Virus genome (UHGV): UHGV-0092352
Origin: a virus
DNA length: 13,933 nucleotides
Strand: one strand, 5' to 3'
A model generated the notes under the pieces. That model was given only the letters and a program-made list of their open reading frames with translations. It did not search any database and had not been told where the DNA came from. This document shows positions 4,980-12,116 of this stretch, in pieces (within the stretch, counting starts at the first letter, position 1; each line of letters opens with the position of its first letter). Made by a program: the position numbers and the translations under genes.

Positions 4980-5002
4980 TATTTTTGTTATCCGGAGAAT
5001 GC

Positions 5003-5227
5003 ATGAAGAAATTACTGGTAACCGTAAAGCCTTTTCAGGGAACAATTCCGTTCCGTATTTTGCAGCGTGGTCGTGTTCTTGTTGAAGGTTCGTTCAGTGG
5101 TAAATGTACGCAATTACACTCCCGGACCTTTCAGGTGAATGCCACGAATGAAGAGCTAACCGTTGAGTGTACGATGAATGCCGCTAAATGCCGCATGGTA
5201 TCCGCTGCATTACAGCCAGTGTGTTGA
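5003..5227 (+). CDS. Hypothetical small protein (74 aa), function unknown
   Basis: ATG 5003 with GGAG 5 nt upstream (MKKLLVTVKPFQGTIPFRILQRG...). No signal peptide or lipobox, so not obviously Bor-like. Confidence 0.45.
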   Translation: MKKLLVTVKPFQGTIPFRILQRGRVLVEGSFSGKCTQLHSRTFQVNATNEELTVECTMNAAKCRMVSAALQPVC

Positions 5228-5425
5228 GCGACCTTATTATCCATGCGCGGTATTGTCGCCGTATTCCTGCATTAACAGAGACCGCAGCCCGACAGGGAGA
5301 CTCCTCTGCGAGAGTGTGCGGGGATAATCAAAAACGATACACACCGGGGTTTACCGCGTTAACGGAGCGCGGCGTTGTCCCCTCATAGTCGCCTGTCCGG
5401 TGCGATGGTGGAAGAAACCGAACGT

Positions 5426-5626
5426 TCATTTCTCGTTATTTTTCATGCTGGCCGGGCGCAGATGCGTTGCATCTGTTGCCAGCCTTCTCCTGCAGGCTTC
5501 AATAACCCACGCTGAAAAGTTACCGGATCCTTTATGCTCAAGGGCGATGTTGATCTGTTCAATCATGTGATTGGGGAAACGGATATTGCGGGTTGTGGTT
5601 CTGCGGGTCCGGTTTTTCGATGACAT
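5426..5626 (-). CDS. YlcI/YnfO-family (DUF3950-like) small prophage protein; putative ribbon-helix-helix-like DNA binder
   Basis: Minus-strand ORF. Best start is ATG at 5626 (MSSKNRTRRTTTRNIRFPNHMIEQINIALEHKGSGNFSAWVIEACRRRL...) with AGGAA SD (TAAAGGAAATAAAT ATG). The same family and position (between lysis genes and terminase) occur in E. coli DLP12/Qin prophages, from memory. Confidence 0.7.
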   Translation of the reverse strand: MSSKNRTRRTTTRNIRFPNHMIEQINIALEHKGSGNFSAWVIEACRRRLATDATHLRPASMKNNEK

Positions 5627-5667
5627 ATTTATTTCCTTTACTGATTGCCATATGACGGGGATTTTAC

Positions 5668-6033
5668 ATGGCTCAGCTTCGTACACTCCAGAGCAGAATC
5701 AAAACACTGAATACCCGACGGGTGAATATTCTGAAGGGGGAGCAGCGTCGTGTCAGTGGCAGTGCACGTGTTTCCCTCAAGCGTCATATCTGGCTGAGGG
5801 ACGCCGGGCAGTGCTGTATCTGTGGTCGTGTGGTTGACCTCTGTGACAGTGAACTTGATCACCGAATTGCACTTCAGTTCGGTGGTGGTAATGAGGAGAC
5901 GAATCTCTGGACGCTCTGTACCGAATGCCATCGACAAAAGTCTGCTCGTGAAGCGGCGGGTGGTATGCCGGACCCGACGCTGCCGGAGGTGTCCGGAGGT
6001 AGTGGCAGAGCGGACGACATCATCGGACTGTAA
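5668..6033 (+). CDS. HNH endonuclease (terminase-associated)
   Basis: Zinc-finger HNH signature: CCICGR...DHRIALQFGG...N...CTECHRQK. Located immediately upstream of the terminase genes, as in HK97/P27-type packaging modules. Confidence 0.85.
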   Translation: MAQLRTLQSRIKTLNTRRVNILKGEQRRVSGSARVSLKRHIWLRDAGQCCICGRVVDLCDSELDHRIALQFGGGNEETNLWTLCTECHRQKSAREAAGGMPDPTLPEVSGGSGRADDIIGL

Positions 6034-6125
6034 CCCGACCCGGGGGGGGGATCATCCGGCGTAAAAAACGATCGCTTTGGACACCGCGCCCCCTCTCACG
6101 CAGAGAAAAAATTCCCGTTTCAGGG

Positions 6126-6251
6126 CAGTTAACATGTTAACTGGCTGCCCGGGCATTTTTGCGGTTTTTATCTTTATTATTCAGTTTGTTGTGCGGAAAA
6201 AATGTTAACTGGCTTTTTCAGCAAATGTTAACCAGGCAGCAGTTAACATTT
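6126..6251. promoter_or_regulatory. Cluster of GTTAAC-centred palindromes / direct repeats; candidate terminase-binding (cosB-like) or operator region
   Basis: Perfect 18-bp palindrome CAGTTAACATGTTAACTG (6126-6143). ATGTTAACTGGCT repeated at 6134-6146 and 6202-6214. Inverted pair AAATGTTAAC (6223-6232) ... GTTAACATTT (6242-6251). Sits in the 290-bp noncoding gap between the HNH and small-terminase genes. Confidence 0.4.
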
Positions 6252-6323
6252 GCGGCATGAGACGCCGGGAAAAATGGGCTGAACCATACCCGGCTGAGTG
6301 CGTTCTGGACCCGGGAGGAGGCT

Positions 6324-6881
6324 GTGCTGACAACGCAAAAACGAAAATTTGCGCTGGCGCTCATGTCCGGGAAAAACAAAACAGCGTCAGCCATTGCCGC
6401 CGGTTATTCGGCGAAGACCGCCAGGGTTAAAGGCTCGCAGCTGGCAAAAGATCCGGAGGTGCTCGCGTTTATAGCCCGTAAACAGTGCGAAACGGTGGAG
6501 GTGGATGAGGTTCCTGTTTACCGGCAGAAAAAATCAGAGCAGGAGGATAAACCCCGTCGCCGTGAGGCGGCTGCAATACCACAGCCGGACGAAAACAATC
6601 CGGAGATGCCACCGTCCGCGGTGATGTCTCCTGGTATTGAATATATGGAGGATGGTCTTCCCGATCCGGTGAAAGCCATGGGGCGGATCCTGGTGGAAAA
6701 CCTCTGCATTGATCCGAAACTGGCACTGGATGCGGCCTGGCGTCTGGCGCAGTTCACGCACCATAAAAAAGGGGATACCGGGAAAAAATCGGCAAAAGGT
6801 GATGCCGCGAAAAAAGCGGCTAACCGTTTTGCGGTGCCACCCCGACTGGTGGTGAATAACGATAATGAGGGCAACGGATGA
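6324..6881 (+). CDS. terS: Terminase small subunit (P27-family-like)
   Basis: GTG start at 6324 with GGAGGAG just upstream (in-frame stop at 6258). N-terminal HTH-like region KRKFALALMSGKNKTASAIAAGYSAKTA. Stop overlaps the large-terminase start (ATGA). Confidence 0.75.
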   Translation: MLTTQKRKFALALMSGKNKTASAIAAGYSAKTARVKGSQLAKDPEVLAFIARKQCETVEVDEVPVYRQKKSEQEDKPRRREAAAIPQPDENNPEMPPSAVMSPGIEYMEDGLPDPVKAMGRILVENLCIDPKLALDAAWRLAQFTHHKKGDTGKKSAKGDAAKKAANRFAVPPRLVVNNDNEGNG

Positions 6882-8539
6882 TACCTGTATGGAGCACAGC
6901 CTGCCCGGACTGGGCAGAGCGCCTGAAAAAGGGGCTGTCGATTATTCCGGATCCGATTTATCCGGACGAGGCCGCACATGCCCTGGCGATTTTTAAACAA
7001 CTGCGGATTGTGGATGCACCTGGTAGCCCTACGTTCGGGGAGTCCTGTGCACCGTGGGTGTTTGACCTGGTGGCGGCCCTGTTTGGCTCCTACGATGCGC
7101 AGACCGGTGTACGCCATATCAAGGAAGTTTTTATCCTTATCCCCAAGAAAAACTCGAAGTCCACGCTGGCCGCGGGGATCATGATGACGGCGCTGTTACT
7201 GAACTGGCGGCAGGCGGCGGGTTACACGATTCTGGCCCCGACTGTGGAGGTGGCGGCCAACGCCTTCAACCCTGCCCGGGATATGGTACGACGTGACGAT
7301 GATCTGGATGACCTCTGCCAGGTACAGACCCATATCCGGACCATCACCCACAGGGTGACAGACACCACCCTGAAGGTGGTGGCAGCCGATCCGAATACGG
7401 TGTCCGGTATCAAGTCCGTGGGTACGCTGATTGATGAGTTGTGGCTGTTTGGCAAGCAGTACAAGGCGGAGGACATGTTACGTGAAGCCATCGGCGGGCT
7501 TGCCTCCCGCCCGGAAGGGTTTGTGGTGTATACGACCACCCAGTCGAATGAACCGCCCGCCGGGGTGTTCAGACAGAAACTGCAGTACGCCCGGGATGTG
7601 CGCGACGGCAAAATTCATGATCCGCACTTTCTGCCGGTGATATTTGAACACCCTCCTGAAATGGTGGAAAGCGGGGCTCACCTGCTGATGGAAAACCTCG
7701 CCATGGTCAATCCGAATCTCGGCTATTCAGTGGATGAGGCCTTTCTGTACCGGGAGTACCGTAAAGCCCGGGAAGCCGGTGAAGAGACATTCCGGGGGTT
7801 CATGTCAAAACACGCCAATGTGGAAATTGGTCTTGCCCTGCGCTCTGACCGCTGGGCGGGGGCTGATTTCTGGGAAGAGCAGGGCCGTTGTATCAGCCTG
7901 GACGATATCCTGCGTCGTGCTGATGTGGTGACGGTGGGGATTGACGGCGGAGGGCTGGATGATCTGCTGGGGATGTATGTGATTGGGCGTGACCGGGAGA
8001 CCCGCGAATGGCTGGGCTGGGGCCATGCCTGGGCGCATGAAACCGCGGTGGTCCGACGGAAGAGCGAGGCGTCCCGGTTTCAGGATCTTGTTGCCTGTGG
8101 AGATATGACCATTGTCCGGCGTATCGGGGATGACACGGCGGAAGTGGCGGAATATGTGCGTCGCATTCATGAGGCTGAGTTACTGGACCATATCGGTATT
8201 GACCCGTCAGGGGTGGGGCAGATTCTGGATTCACTGGCGGAAGCCGGGATCCCCGACGGAATTGTGGTGGGGATAAGCCAGGGCTGGAAACTGGGCGGGG
8301 CCATTAAAACCACCGAGCGCAAACTGGCTGAAGGGGTGCTGGTGCATGGTGACCAGCCCCTGATGGCCTGGTGTGTCGGCAATGCCCGGGTGGAGCCTAA
8401 AGGTAACGCCATTCTTATCACCAAACAGGCCAGTGGACGGGGAAAAATTGACCCGCTGATGGCGCTGTTCAATGCGGTCTCCCTGATGTCCCTTAACCCG
8501 GAACCGAAAAAGAAAGAATATGCGGTTTTTTTCATATAA
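6878..8539 (+). CDS. terL: Terminase large subunit
   Basis: 553 aa. Start ATG 6878 overlaps the TerS stop. Large multi-domain protein in the canonical position downstream of the small subunit; resembles HK97/P27-type TerL from memory. Confidence 0.9.
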   Translation: MIPVWSTACPDWAERLKKGLSIIPDPIYPDEAAHALAIFKQLRIVDAPGSPTFGESCAPWVFDLVAALFGSYDAQTGVRHIKEVFILIPKKNSKSTLAAGIMMTALLLNWRQAAGYTILAPTVEVAANAFNPARDMVRRDDDLDDLCQVQTHIRTITHRVTDTTLKVVAADPNTVSGIKSVGTLIDELWLFGKQYKAEDMLREAIGGLASRPEGFVVYTTTQSNEPPAGVFRQKLQYARDVRDGKIHDPHFLPVIFEHPPEMVESGAHLLMENLAMVNPNLGYSVDEAFLYREYRKAREAGEETFRGFMSKHANVEIGLALRSDRWAGADFWEEQGRCISLDDILRRADVVTVGIDGGGLDDLLGMYVIGRDRETREWLGWGHAWAHETAVVRRKSEASRFQDLVACGDMTIVRRIGDDTAEVAEYVRRIHEAELLDHIGIDPSGVGQILDSLAEAGIPDGIVVGISQGWKLGGAIKTTERKLAEGVLVHGDQPLMAWCVGNARVEPKGNAILITKQASGRGKIDPLMALFNAVSLMSLNPEPKKKEYAVFFI

Positions 8540-8602: not shown

Positions 8603-10540
8603 GTGACTCTTAAACGGGCCTGTTCCCTGCTGACGGTGAAATCCTTCAGTGAGGATGAACGGGTGATCACCGGGATTGCGTCAACGCCTTCTCCGGATCG
8701 GGATGGTGACATCCTGGAGCCGGAGGGCGCGGAGTTTGGCAGTGCGATCCCGTTTCTCTGGCAGCATGACCATTCCCGCCCGGTGGGGCAGTGTACGGTG
8801 CGCCGGGTCAGCGAAGGGCTGGAAATCACGGCAACACTGGTGAAGCCCGTACCGGATATGCCGTCGCAACTGGCTGCCCGGCTGGATGAGGTCTGGGCGG
8901 CCATTAAGACCGGGCTGGTCAGGGGGCTGTCCGTGGGCTTCCGTCCCCATGAATACACCTTTCTGGACGGAGGCGGACTGCATTTTATGCGCTGGGAACT
9001 GATGGAGGTGTCTGCCGTCACCGTGCCCGCGAATGCGGAATGCACCATCCGGACCATTAAATCTTACGACCGCCCGTTTTCTGCCGCGTCCGGCAACCGG
9101 AAACCGGTGGTGAAAATCGCATCTTCTGCCGGCGCTGCGGCACAGTCAACAACCGTTTTTCATAAGGAAAAGACCATAATGAATATTGGCGAACAGATTA
9201 AAAGTTTTGAAAACAAGCGTGCAGCGCTGGCAGCCTCCCTTGAGGAGGTCATGACCAAAGCCGCAGAGGAAGGGCGCACGCTGGATGTGGAGGAGGAAGA
9301 GCATTACGACAACACCGCAGCGGAAATCCGTCAGGTGGATGCGCACCTGAAGCGCCTGCGTGAACTGGAAGCCGGTAAGGCCGCCACGGCGCAGCCGGTG
9401 AAACAGGCCGGTAACGGGAATGTGGCCGCGGTGGCTTCTGCGCCGGTGATCCGTGTGGAGCAGAAACTGGATAAGGGGATTGGCTTCGCCCGCTTTGCCA
9501 AATCGCTGGCTGCGGCTAAAGGCGTCCGATCTGAAGCCCTGGAAGTGGCCCGTCGTCAGTATCCGGATGACAGTCGTCTGCATCATGTCCTGAAATCGGC
9601 AGTGGGCGCGGGGACCACCACGGATCCGCAGTGGGCAGGCAGCCTGTCTGAATATCAGGAATACGCACAGGACTTTATTGATTACCTGCGTCCGCAGACC
9701 ATTATCGGGCGATTTGGTCAGGGCGGGATCCCTGCACTTCGTCAGGTGCCGTTCAATATCCGTGTGCACGCCCAGGTGTCCGGCGGTGCTGCCGGCTGGG
9801 TGGGTGAGGGTAAGGCAAAACCCCTGACGAAGTTTGATTTTGAATCCATCACCTTCAGTCATGCGAAAGTGTCGGCCATTGCGGTACTGACGGAAGAATT
9901 GATCCGTTTTTCCAGTCCGGCTGCTGATGCACTGGTCCGTAATGCGCTGGCGGAAGCGGTGGTGGCGCGTCTGGATACAGACTTTGTGGACCCGAAAAAA
10001 GCCGCAGTGGCAGATGTCTCCCCGGCGTCCATCACCCATGATGTGAAGGGCACGGCATCAACCGGTAACCCGGATGCGGATGCAGAGGCTGCGTTTGGAC
10101 AGTTTGTGGCAGCAAACCTGCAGCCCACCGGTGCGGTCTGGCTGATGTCCAGCACCAATGCCCTGGCACTGTCCATGCGTAAAAATGCGCTGGGTCAGAA
10201 GGAATACCCGGACATGACCCTGCTGGGTGGCTCCTTCCAGGGGCTGCCGGTGATTGTCTCCCAGTACGTGGGTGACCAACTGGTGCTGGTGAATGCCCCG
10301 GATATTTATCTGGCGGATGACGGCGGCGTGGCAGTGGATATGTCCCGCGAGGCATCACTGGAAATGCAGTCTGAGCCGACCGGCGACAGTACCACGCCGT
10401 CCCCGGTGGAGCTGGTTTCCATGTTCCAGACAGGCAGCGTGGCCATCCGTGCGGAGCGCTGGATCAACTGGCGTCGTCGCCGTACCGCGGCAGTGGCGGT
10501 GATCACCGGTGTGAACTACGGAACTGCGTCCGGCGGCTGA
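8603..10540 (+). CDS. Fused HK97-family prohead protease - scaffold-like domain - major capsid protein
   Basis: GTG start 8603 with AGGAGG 5 nt upstream. N-terminal ~180 aa carry prohead-protease hallmarks (FLWQHDHSRPVG; GLSVGF; LMEVSAVTVPANAE). A coiled-coil delta-like segment is followed by an HK97-fold capsid domain. One uninterrupted 645-codon frame. Confidence 0.85.
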   Translation: MTLKRACSLLTVKSFSEDERVITGIASTPSPDRDGDILEPEGAEFGSAIPFLWQHDHSRPVGQCTVRRVSEGLEITATLVKPVPDMPSQLAARLDEVWAAIKTGLVRGLSVGFRPHEYTFLDGGGLHFMRWELMEVSAVTVPANAECTIRTIKSYDRPFSAASGNRKPVVKIASSAGAAAQSTTVFHKEKTIMNIGEQIKSFENKRAALAASLEEVMTKAAEEGRTLDVEEEEHYDNTAAEIRQVDAHLKRLRELEAGKAATAQPVKQAGNGNVAAVASAPVIRVEQKLDKGIGFARFAKSLAAAKGVRSEALEVARRQYPDDSRLHHVLKSAVGAGTTTDPQWAGSLSEYQEYAQDFIDYLRPQTIIGRFGQGGIPALRQVPFNIRVHAQVSGGAAGWVGEGKAKPLTKFDFESITFSHAKVSAIAVLTEELIRFSSPAADALVRNALAEAVVARLDTDFVDPKKAAVADVSPASITHDVKGTASTGNPDADAEAAFGQFVAANLQPTGAVWLMSSTNALALSMRKNALGQKEYPDMTLLGGSFQGLPVIVSQYVGDQLVLVNAPDIYLADDGGVAVDMSREASLEMQSEPTGDSTTPSPVELVSMFQTGSVAIRAERWINWRRRRTAAVAVITGVNYGTASGG

Positions 10541-10584: not shown

Positions 10585-10806
10585 ATGGCAAAAATCCAGT
10601 ATCTGCAGGGCACGCATGATGCCCGGGCCGGGGATATCCGTGATGTGGCACAGCCGTGTGCGGAGGTGCTGGTTCGCCTGGGGAAGGCGGAGTACATCAC
10701 AGTGCGACGTCCGGCAGGTCAGAAAAAGAAACGTGATGCGGAGCATGGCGAATGTGGAACCTTTTGCGGCGAACCCGAAAAAACCAGAAATCAGGACGTG
10801 ATGTAA
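10585..10806 (+). CDS. Hypothetical small ORF between capsid and portal genes
   Basis: 73-codon ORF filling the 211-bp gap. Weak SD; the C-terminal third is low-complexity and overlaps the portal start by 55 nt. May not be a real gene. Confidence 0.25.
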   Translation: MAKIQYLQGTHDARAGDIRDVAQPCAEVLVRLGKAEYITVRRPAGQKKKRDAEHGECGTFCGEPEKTRNQDVM

Positions 10807-12116
10807 AAGAGGTGGGCTGGACCAGCCTGTTTCAGGCGGTGGCTGAGCCCTTTTCCGGCGCCTGGCAGCAGGGCGTGAAAGCCGATCCTGAAGCCGTCCT
10901 CTCCTTTCATGCGGTGTTTGCATGTATTTCGCTGATATCCCAGGATATCGCCAAAATGCGGCTGCGTCTTATGCAGACGGATGCGCATGGGATACGCAGG
11001 GAAACGCGCCGGGGGGATATTGCCCGTCTCTGTCGTCGTCCCAATGCACAGCAGAATCGTATCCAGTTTTTTGAACTGTGGCTGAACGCCAAACTGCGTC
11101 ACGGCAATACGGTGGTGCTGAAAATCCGTAACTCCCGGGGGCAGATCAAAGAACTGCGTATTCTGGACTGGAGCCGGGTTGAACCTCTGGTGGCGGATGA
11201 CGGCGAGGTGTTCTATCGCATTACACCGGACCGGAACTGCGGGATCACGGAGGCGGTGATGGTGCCTGCCAGGGAAGTGATCCACGACCGGTTTAACTGT
11301 TTTTTTCATCCGCTTGTGGGGCTGCCGCCGGTGTATGCTGCCGGGCTGGCTGCCACGCAGGGGCATCATATTCAGGCAAATTCAACGTCTTTTTTCAGAA
11401 ATGGCGGCAGGCCGTCCGGGGTGATTGAGATCCCCGGCAGTATAACGGAAGAAAATGCGAAAAAACTGAAGAGCAACTGGGACAGCGGGTATACCGGCGA
11501 AAATGCGGGGAAAACGGCGATCCTGAGCAACGGGGCGAAATATAACCCCACGACGTTTTCACCGGTGGATGCGCAGACGGTGGAACAGCTGAAAATGACG
11601 GCTGAAATTGTCTGTTCGGTGTTCCGTGTCCCGGCCTACAAGATTGGTGTGGGACAACCGCCTTCCAGTGACAACGTGGAGGCGCTGGAGCAGCAGTATT
11701 ATTCCCAGTGTCTGCAGACGCTGATTGAGTCCATTGAGCTGTTACTGGATGAGGCGCTGGAAACAGGGGAAAACGAGAGCACGGAGTTTGACGTCACCAC
11801 GCTGCTGAGAATGGACAGCGAACGTCGCATGAAAACGCTGGGGGATGCGGTGAAAAATACGCTTCTCACGCCCAATGAGGCCCGTAAACGTGAGAATCTG
11901 CCGCCCCTGGCAGGAGGCGATGCACTGTATCTTCAGCAGCAGAACTACAGTCTGGAGGCGCTGTCCCGTCGTGATGCCCGTGAGGATCCGTTCGCGTCTT
12001 CCGGGAAAACGTCGTCAGGCACACGCCAGGAGGGCGCGTCTGACGGTAATAAGGCCATAAGCGAAACAGAGCGTGATGCGGTGAAGGCGATGTTCAGGGG
12101 GATACTGCGAAAATGA
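10752..12116 (+). CDS. Portal protein (HK97-family-like)
   Basis: 454 aa. N-terminus MWNLLRRTRKNQ...WTSLFQ is typical of HK97-type portals. In-frame stop at 10734-10736 makes ATG 10752 the first start (GGAG 9 nt upstream); GTG 10812 is an alternative start. Confidence 0.85.
   Translation: MWNLLRRTRKNQKSGRDVKEVGWTSLFQAVAEPFSGAWQQGVKADPEAVLSFHAVFACISLISQDIAKMRLRLMQTDAHGIRRETRRGDIARLCRRPNAQQNRIQFFELWLNAKLRHGNTVVLKIRNSRGQIKELRILDWSRVEPLVADDGEVFYRITPDRNCGITEAVMVPAREVIHDRFNCFFHPLVGLPPVYAAGLAATQGHHIQANSTSFFRNGGRPSGVIEIPGSITEENAKKLKSNWDSGYTGENAGKTAILSNGAKYNPTTFSPVDAQTVEQLKMTAEIVCSVFRVPAYKIGVGQPPSSDNVEALEQQYYSQCLQTLIESIELLLDEALETGENESTEFDVTTLLRMDSERRMKTLGDAVKNTLLTPNEARKRENLPPLAGGDALYLQQQNYSLEALSRRDAREDPFASSGKTSSGTRQEGASDGNKAISETERDAVKAMFRGILRK

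Follow-up and report, generated by a model that had tools for sequence, protein, structure and literature searches.

In phage lambda, the cohesive-end site (cos) is laid out as cosQ-cosN-cosB, with R3, I1, R2 and R1, yields a 12-nt 5' overhang and is not known to have an HNH partner. The pac site of SPP1 and SF6 (pacL-pacC-pacR, bound by G1P) is recognised through short repeated boxes in intrinsically bent DNA, and SPP1 shows headful packaging, in which pac is cut once, imprecisely, and the DNA is terminally redundant. In HK97, with gp1 as small terminase (TerS), gp2 as large terminase (TerL) and gp74 as HNH protein, TerS binds downstream of the cut at +15 to +29, and the minimal site includes an A-tract (PMC11331095). 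PhageTerm identified the Stx1 phage Lys8385Vzw as a cos phage with 3' cohesive ends, its genome terminating in CGCCCCCCCT (PMC7946995), and the Acinetobacter phages fEg-Aba01, fLi-Aba02 and fLi-Aba03 have 10-nt 3' cohesive ends CGCCCCCCAT, as determined with PhageTerm and by heat/cool restriction gels (PMC7354433). Here we describe a noncoding interval of 290 bp (6034–6323) in UHGV virus genome UHGV-0092352, situated between the stop codon TAA (6031–6033) of an HNH endonuclease gene and the GTG start codon (6324) of terS. The window denotes the whole stretch of DNA analysed, 13,933 nt in length, and signed positions are counted from the top-strand cut.

We consider this interval to be the cos of an HK97-type, HNH-assisted packaging machine with a putative SPP1-type TerS recognition region downstream, and assign a probability of about 0.65 to this reading. 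The cut site itself appears to be a C-rich 10-mer rather than the G9 tract or the GTTAAC array of the interval; by homology, cuts at 6084/6085 and 6094/6095 would leave a 10-nt 3' overhang CGCGCCCCCT. An earlier sequence-only reading had placed cos or a packaging-recognition region in this gap between HNH and TerS, with the G9 tract and the GTTAAC array as candidate elements. The gap and the sequence features described (G9, GTTAAC words, palindrome, repeats) were confirmed base for base, the gene boundaries being read at the positions given above. The placement also held, in that the mapped ends of relatives align to 6085–6094. The cleavage 10-mer, however, had not been flagged, and the G9 tract (−53 to −45) and the array (+32 to +159) proved to be conserved elements that flank the cut. 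The call is correct but largely ordinary. The interval comprises the following features, in order:

6042–6050, plus strand: poly-G tract, G9, on the right-end side of cos, at −53 to −45 from the top-strand cut.
6051–6084, plus strand: conserved upstream arm of cos, ATCATCCGGCG...CGATCGCTTTGGACAC, near-invariant in 62 unique close copies.
6085–6094, plus strand: putative cohesive-end sequence CGCGCCCCCT, the cosN equivalent, assigned by homology to mapped ends.
6095–6125, plus strand: left-end core CTCACGCAGAGAAAAAATTCCCGTTTCAGGG, the most widely conserved block 3' of the cut.
6126–6143, no strand: site A, an 18-bp perfect palindrome CAGTTAACATGTTAACTG with two GTTAAC words at +34 and +42, spanning +32 to +49.
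6150–6198, no strand: AT-rich spacer with helically phased T-tracts (TTTTT at 6156–6160, 6165–6169 and more; G+C fraction 0.42).
6199–6214, plus strand: site B, AAAATGTTAACTGGCT, which duplicates the right half of site A (94% over 16 nt), with a ATGTTAAC core that is invariant in the 62 unique copies.
6221–6233, plus strand: site C, GCAAATGTTAACC, core invariant.
6239–6253, minus strand: site D, GCAAATGTTAACTGC on that strand, which duplicates the left half of site A, inverted with respect to site C, core invariant.
6254–6323, plus strand: variable GC-rich spacer with the densest substitutions of the whole interval.
6313–6321, plus strand: Shine-Dalgarno sequence of TerS, GGGAGGAGG, at the 3' end of the variable spacer.

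The assignment of the cut site comes from the ends of relatives. Lys8385Vzw is ~97% identical to the window, and its CGCCCCCCCT aligns to 6085–6094, one substitution away from CGCGCCCCCT. The record of this phage ends with ...GGACACCGCCCCCCCT and starts with CTCACGCAGAGAAAAAATTCCC, and the break ...CCGCCCCCCCT/CTCACGCAG corresponds to 6094/6095 of the window. The Acinetobacter phages fEg-Aba01, fLi-Aba02 and fLi-Aba03 have a TerL that is 52% identical to that of the window; the record of fLi-Aba03 ends with ...GGACACCGCCCCCCAT, and its final 10 nt, annotated as cohesive end, occupy the place homologous to the window 10-mer. The record of Burkholderia phage Bcep176 begins exactly at the homologous 10-mer. 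Two assembly contigs break within 4 nt of the cut, one starting at the equivalent of 6094 (L197) and the other ending at the equivalent of 6098 (L014). The record of phi330 (L001, PV189401.1) was rejected as end evidence because it had been opened at the start of terL. Its misc_feature at 55391–55911 carries a note that gives both circularly permuted and cohesive ends, and its terS is split; the conflict looks like an annotation inconsistency rather than biology.

Relatives were collected by scanning IMG/VR for the conserved word GATCGCNNNGGACACCGC, followed by BLAST filtering, and were supplemented with TerS-based loci and TerL-based phage records. In every relative a run of 5–12 G precedes the cut, and on the left side homology begins with this run, also in relatives that have a gene other than HNH next to it. 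The spacer between its 3' end and the cut measures 41–45 nt in 28 unique distant contexts, some with unrelated intervening sequence; it amounts to 44 nt in the window and in fLi-Aba03, and to 42 nt in HK97. This spacing is kept in about eight host genera, comprising enterobacterial, Pseudomonas, Burkholderia, Bordetella, Vibrio, Moraxella and Acinetobacter relatives. In the window, the tract follows the HNH stop codon by 8 nt and belongs to a block (6034–6094) with 67% G+C. Taken by itself, a G-run is no more than chance would give with this composition (four G7 matches against 4.6 expected in shuffles), and its significance lies in its conservation in relatives. The suspicion that the G9 tract is a slipped-strand hotspot was borne out, the length ranging from 5 to 12 across 113 close copies with 7 or 8 being commonest. 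The exact number of G is evidently tolerated. Within the upstream arm, GATC sites are found at 6050–6053 and 6070–6073, and GGACACCGC is retained in Salmonella, Moraxella and Acinetobacter relatives. Since this upstream half is shared with HK97, whose TerS is unrelated, it would go with the shared TerL/HNH side. The segment from the poly-G tract to GGACACC (6042–6084), placed as cosQ is in lambda, most likely serves the shared TerL/HNH nuclease in cutting or termination.

Three further observations concern the surroundings of the poly-G tract. In L219 (LC567822.1, PPompW_132418), the IS110-family element ISEc20 (1146–2604) sits within the poly-G tract at the equivalent of window ~6046, flanked by G7 and G5; upstream of it, the lysis genes and HNH are missing, with tRNA genes in their place. 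This suggests that G-runs are a target for ISEc20 and that this prophage has lost part of the cos-proximal region. Many relatives, and HK97 as well, carry directly upstream of the poly-G tract an AT-rich insert rich in Fur-box-like words such as AATGATAATGATTCTCATTA and AAATGAAAATGATTATCATTT, which is absent from the window. It was seen ~100 bp upstream of poly-G in L208, L210, L207, L068, L052, L069, L124, L119, L040, L024, L016 and L023, and at ~420–485 in the HK97 record (L212), and might mark iron-regulated or promoter DNA before the packaging genes. When the end of the record of Pseudomonas phage vB_Pae_CF53a is joined to its start (L128+L127), a near-perfect inverted repeat with arms of ~30 nt (GGTGGGGGGGGTGAAAATATCCGGCTTCGC and GCGAAGCCGGATATTTTTACCCCCCCCACC) appears directly before the left-end core, with G8 and C8 as the outer parts. 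The window holds a faint remnant of such a symmetry, centred on CGATCG at 6069–6074.

On the other side of the cut, the left-end core contains an A6 tract at 6106–6111 (+12 to +17). In Pseudomonas and Vibrio relatives the tract at this place is rich in T, a sign that DNA shape may be recognised here. GTTAAC is found at 6128, 6136, 6204, 6227 and 6242; the whole window has ten copies against 1.9 expected. All five copies of the 8-mer ATGTTAAC in the 13.9-kb window lie within 6128–6249 (0.27 expected, and none of 200 shuffles reached five). Besides the palindrome of site A, which is extended to 22 bp (GCCAG...CTGGC) in 22 of the 62 unique copies, the words form a direct repeat ATGTTAACTGGCT (6134–6146 and 6202–6214) and an inverted pair, GCAAATGTTAAC at 6221–6232 and GTTAACATTTGC at 6242–6253. 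The nine 70-nt segments of the whole 13.9 kb with the strongest AA/TT periodicity at 10–11 bp all start at 6056–6156, and the AT-rich spacer is predicted to be intrinsically bent. Among the 62 unique copies, no column of the ATGTTAAC cores is variable (0/38), compared with 57/191 columns elsewhere in 6095–6323 (Fisher p=7.5e-6), and site A is also invariant in an independently anchored set of copies. The outer stem positions of site D change without compensation in L106 and L107, and the C/D inverted repeat was for this reason rejected as an RNA stem.

GTTAA-type words are also present in the homologous packaging regions of relatives, and the first copy, GTWAAY, is found at +33 to +36 from the cut in 20 of the 28 unique contexts. 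The word reads GTTAATGGCGTTAAC in Pseudomonas and GTTAATGGCTTTAAC in Burkholderia relatives; Bordetella PHB09 has four GTTAA-type copies, and the end-mapped fLi-Aba03 has three AAGTTAAA repeats at +34, +47 and +58. Salmonella phage FSL SP-016 and ~20 IMG/VR relatives align to window 6039–6144 only. Their TerS starts at the ATG of GT(A/T)AAC(A/G)TGTTAAC, which is aligned with window 6134, and therefore the Stx lineage carries ~182 extra bp (6142–6323), holding three more ATGTTAAC copies and the phased T-tracts, with TerS now starting at 6324. The ATG at 6134 may thus be a fossil of the ancestral TerS start codon. In the ancestral layout, as this alignment suggests, the dyad would have overlapped the start codon, the ~182 bp having been gained in the Stx lineage; the first palindrome alone appears ancestral to the family, and the other three ATGTTAAC copies are lineage-specific. 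Where the word overlaps an N-terminal Leu codon of TerS, this codon is TTA in 23/23 unique genes as opposed to 4.1% of the other Leu codons there, even in GC-rich hosts. This bias suggests that the constraint acts on the DNA word, at its fixed distance from the cut, rather than on the protein. The N-terminal codons of the window TerS are GTG CTG ACA, the Leu codon being CTG.

The interval contains no conserved open reading frame. A 24-codon open reading frame at 6134–6208 (plus strand), encoding the hydrophobic peptide MLTGCPGIFAVFIFIIQFVVRKKC, begins at this presumed fossil start codon. It was rejected as a gene, being truncated by an indel in L106 and changing freely in L107. The 182-bp stretch was likewise rejected as a mobile element, as within the phage collection it is found in the cos context only. 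In the distant relative L057 (IMG/VR), AAAAGTTACAC occurs twice between the cut and TerS, and about five more GTTAC(A) words lie inside terS, ~200–290 nt after the cut, where they encode a repeated K-K-V-T peptide; these words may be a recognition array reaching into the gene.

On the basis of the gene families identified, the ends mapped in relatives, and the way in which the elements are conserved and spaced, we propose the following course of events, in which the pairing of proteins with sites and the roles of sites B–D and of the G tract are putative. TerL, aided by the HNH protein, would make staggered cuts in concatemeric DNA at 6084/6085 and 6094/6095. The genome would then enter the capsid from 6095, terS first, and 6042–6084 would come to lie at the right-hand end of the packaged DNA. 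The predicted right end is ...GGACACCGCGCCCCCT-3' and the predicted left end 5'-CTCACGCAGAG. The SPP1-type TerS would recognise the left-end region, namely the A-tract at +12 to +17 plus the GTTAAC dyad at +34/+42, the downstream side, placed like cosB of lambda, being a candidate region for TerS recognition. The Stx lineage, and no other, would add DNA bent by phased T-tracts and a further three ATGTTAAC half-sites, at +110, +133 and +148, and with these extra half-sites a TerS ring could touch curved DNA at several points.

Several points weigh against this reading. The cohesive ends were mapped in relatives and not in the window's own prophage, the cut positions being transferred by homology, and PhageTerm calls beside homopolymers can err by one or two bases. 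The function of the poly-G tract is read from its position alone. As the close copies are not independent, the conservation test overstates the support, and site A is the anchor of the 62-copy set. No GTTAA word was found at +34 in the Moraxella and Vibrio relatives, and the TTA bias could stem in part from selection for an unstructured, AT-rich translation start. The DNA fold of 6030–6105 is no better than shuffles (z=+0.77) with respect to a hairpin of the G-run and a C-run around the cut, and a hairpin or cruciform spanning the cut was rejected. The IHF consensus WATCAANNNNTTR, with up to one mismatch, has no match in 6034–6323, and an IHF site in the AT-rich spacer was rejected accordingly. 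Finally, the short-spacer relatives manage with the dyad alone, so that sites B–D may be dispensable duplicates. This last point leads to an alternative which we consider improbable, though still worth weighing: cos would be located here, with only the core from poly-G to site A being functional, and sites B–D with the 182 bp would have arisen neutrally, through local duplication or recombination close to the start of TerS. In Salmonella, Pseudomonas, Burkholderia and HK97-like relatives, the cut and TerS are 45–70 bp apart, sites B and D reproduce the halves of site A exactly, flanks included, and the 182 bp are confined to one context. However, the cores of sites B–D are invariant (0/24 columns) while the surrounding spacer varies, even in copies that are 85–89% identical; arrays of three to four GTTAA words were built independently in other lineages, and phased T-tracts separate site A from sites B–D.

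The GTTAAC words could also be an operator, instead of a packaging signal, through which TerS or another regulator controls the translation or transcription of terS. The ancestral dyad covers the TerS start codon just 3' of the Shine-Dalgarno sequence, and, like many repressor sites, the words are palindromic. Yet the dyad was kept at +34/+42 while TerS moved by ~190 bp, and its position is therefore tied to the cut and not to the gene; nor is there a convincing promoter or terminator in the interval. We give this operator little credence. More weight, though well short of an even chance, is due to a poly-G tract that has no packaging role and is a slippage-prone leftover, or a hotspot of recombination or insertion bordering the module. 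Its length varies without evident cost, it forms the homology edge between mosaics, ISEc20 is located inside it in PPompW prophages, and G-runs are not rare for the composition of the window. Against this, a neutral homopolymer is expected to decay, and the tract is held 41–45 nt from the cut in about eight host genera and HK97 even where the intervening sequence has fully diverged. At the opposite end stands the speculative notion that poly-G, about 45 nt before the cut, is a true cos subsite of all HK97-type systems, read in the manner of lambda cosQ by TerL/HNH and not by TerS, with slippage between 5 and 12 G acting as a heritable dial on cleavage or termination. Long as the odds on it are, such a dial would set the packaging and cross-packaging efficiency of co-resident Stx-type prophages sharing this cos.

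The genes around the interval were assigned by their protein families and lie in this order:

5668–6033, plus strand: HNH endonuclease gene, accessory nuclease of the packaging module (Pfam PF01844, E=4.8e-7).
6324–6881, plus strand: TerS, small terminase, GTG start, with an SPP1/SF6-type N-terminal DNA-binding domain (Pfam PF03592).
6878–8539, plus strand: TerL, large terminase of the HK97 type (Pfam PF03354 and PF20441).
8603–10540: protease-capsid fusion (Pfam PF04586 and PF05065).
10752–12116: portal (Pfam PF04860).

The HNH gene is immediately 5' of cos, terS and terL. The PF03592 domain covers residues 2–57 of TerS (36.1 bits against a cut-off of 26.1), and comparison with the PDB gave weak matches of TerS to 2cmp, 4zc3 and 3zqp, which are SF6/SPP1 G1P DNA-binding domains. 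The sole PDB match of TerL was 6z6d ('Terminase large subunit', E=1.5e-9), which we take to be the HK97 large terminase. One open reading frame of 645 amino acids, located between terL and the portal gene, unites prohead protease and major capsid protein; this order of terL, protease-capsid fusion and portal is unusual for an HK97-like head module. The sole leftward gene in this late-operon stretch is a DUF3950 open reading frame (5426–5686, minus strand; PF13132, E=6e-20), which shares 19 nt with the start of the HNH gene. A search of 5000–7000 against Rfam returned no match at E<=1, and an RNA element in the interval was rejected. A promoter or terminator in the interval was rejected too, with only a weak minus-strand match made of the motif itself and no terminator.

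The same interval is 95–99% identical in 93 phage records, including Stx1a, Stx2a and Stx2c phages, BP-4795, 2851, 1717 and YYZ-2008. This type of cos was found in 1277/5426 complete Escherichia coli genomes (24%), with up to seven copies per genome, and the E. coli records listed for it are without annotation of cos. A protein-level search of genome contigs with TerS gave no match, which reflects the limit of the method and not absence. The cos type includes Stx1-, Stx2a- and Stx2c-converting phages. Knowledge of the cut site and the flanking signals helps to orient and annotate prophages and to interpret PhageTerm and coverage data, and also to predict which co-resident prophages or plasmids with this module of ~100–220 bp could be packaged by each other's terminase. 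For this phage group, the cohesive end has been published before. For the flanking architecture, i.e. poly-G at −45, GTTAA words from +34 and the lineage-specific expansion, we found no description in the searchable papers, a search that did not extend to older papers behind subscriptions, among them the original description of the HK97 genome.

The order of elements resembles that in lambda: an upstream accessory element, a nick site, several (here putative) TerS sites split by bent DNA, and terS, the side of the TerS sites being packaged first. Several candidate TerS-binding repeats between the nick site and terS, plus phased T-tracts, are present in the window. Despite a layout like cosQ-cosN-cosB, membership in the lambda group fails on cosN, the IHF site and the protein families. 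A lambda cosN-like sequence (GGGCGGCGACCT, up to two mismatches) has no match in the window; the 12-nt overhang of lambda is a 5' overhang, whereas the relatives of the window have 3' overhangs; Nu1 and gpA belong to unrelated families; and bending in the interval, which is without the IHF consensus, would be intrinsic, by way of the phased T-tracts. SPP1 and SF6 share with the window the PF03592 family of the TerS N-terminal domain. Unlike in SPP1, defined cohesive ends are present in both close and distant relatives of the window, together with an HK97-type TerL and HNH, which does not fit headful packaging with imprecise ends.

The ends CGCCCCCCCT of Lys8385Vzw and CGCCCCCCAT of fEg-Aba01, fLi-Aba02 and fLi-Aba03 fall into one family of 10-mers with CGCGCCCCCT. 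These phages also share with the window the poly-G tract 44 nt upstream, GGACACCGC, the core C(T/G)CACGCA..AAAAAATTCCC and GTTAA-type repeats from +34. The papers on these phages report the overhang only, with the poly-G tract and the repeats undescribed (PMC7946995; PMC7354433). In fLi-Aba03, the three AAGTTAAA repeats are direct repeats and not palindromes, and 72 bp separate the cut from TerS.

With HK97, the locus shares the position of HNH before cos and of terS and terL after it, the 10-nt 3' overhang and an A/T tract just inside the left end. In HK97, GGGGGGGGGATCA (G9 followed by ATCA) ends 42 nt before the experimentally defined right end, where the window has a spacing of 44 nt, and the cut is marked by a GAC(A)CCGC-GCC motif. 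HK97, for its part, has no GTTAAC words, and its TerS starts 49 bp after the cut as against 229 bp in the window. The similarity of the window HNH to gp74 is marginal (E=0.096, pairwise). The TerS proteins are unrelated: gp1 gave no significant BLASTP match to the window TerS and is without a Pfam family. Because the window TerS, with its PF03592 domain, is unmatched by gp1, the module is not HK97-like on the TerS side; it is HK97-like in TerL, HNH and the cut side, and not in TerS or the side of the TerS sites. The comparison amounts to a natural experiment separating the two sides of cos, in which the upstream side appears to travel with the HK97-type TerL and HNH, and the downstream GTTAA words with the SPP1-type TerS.

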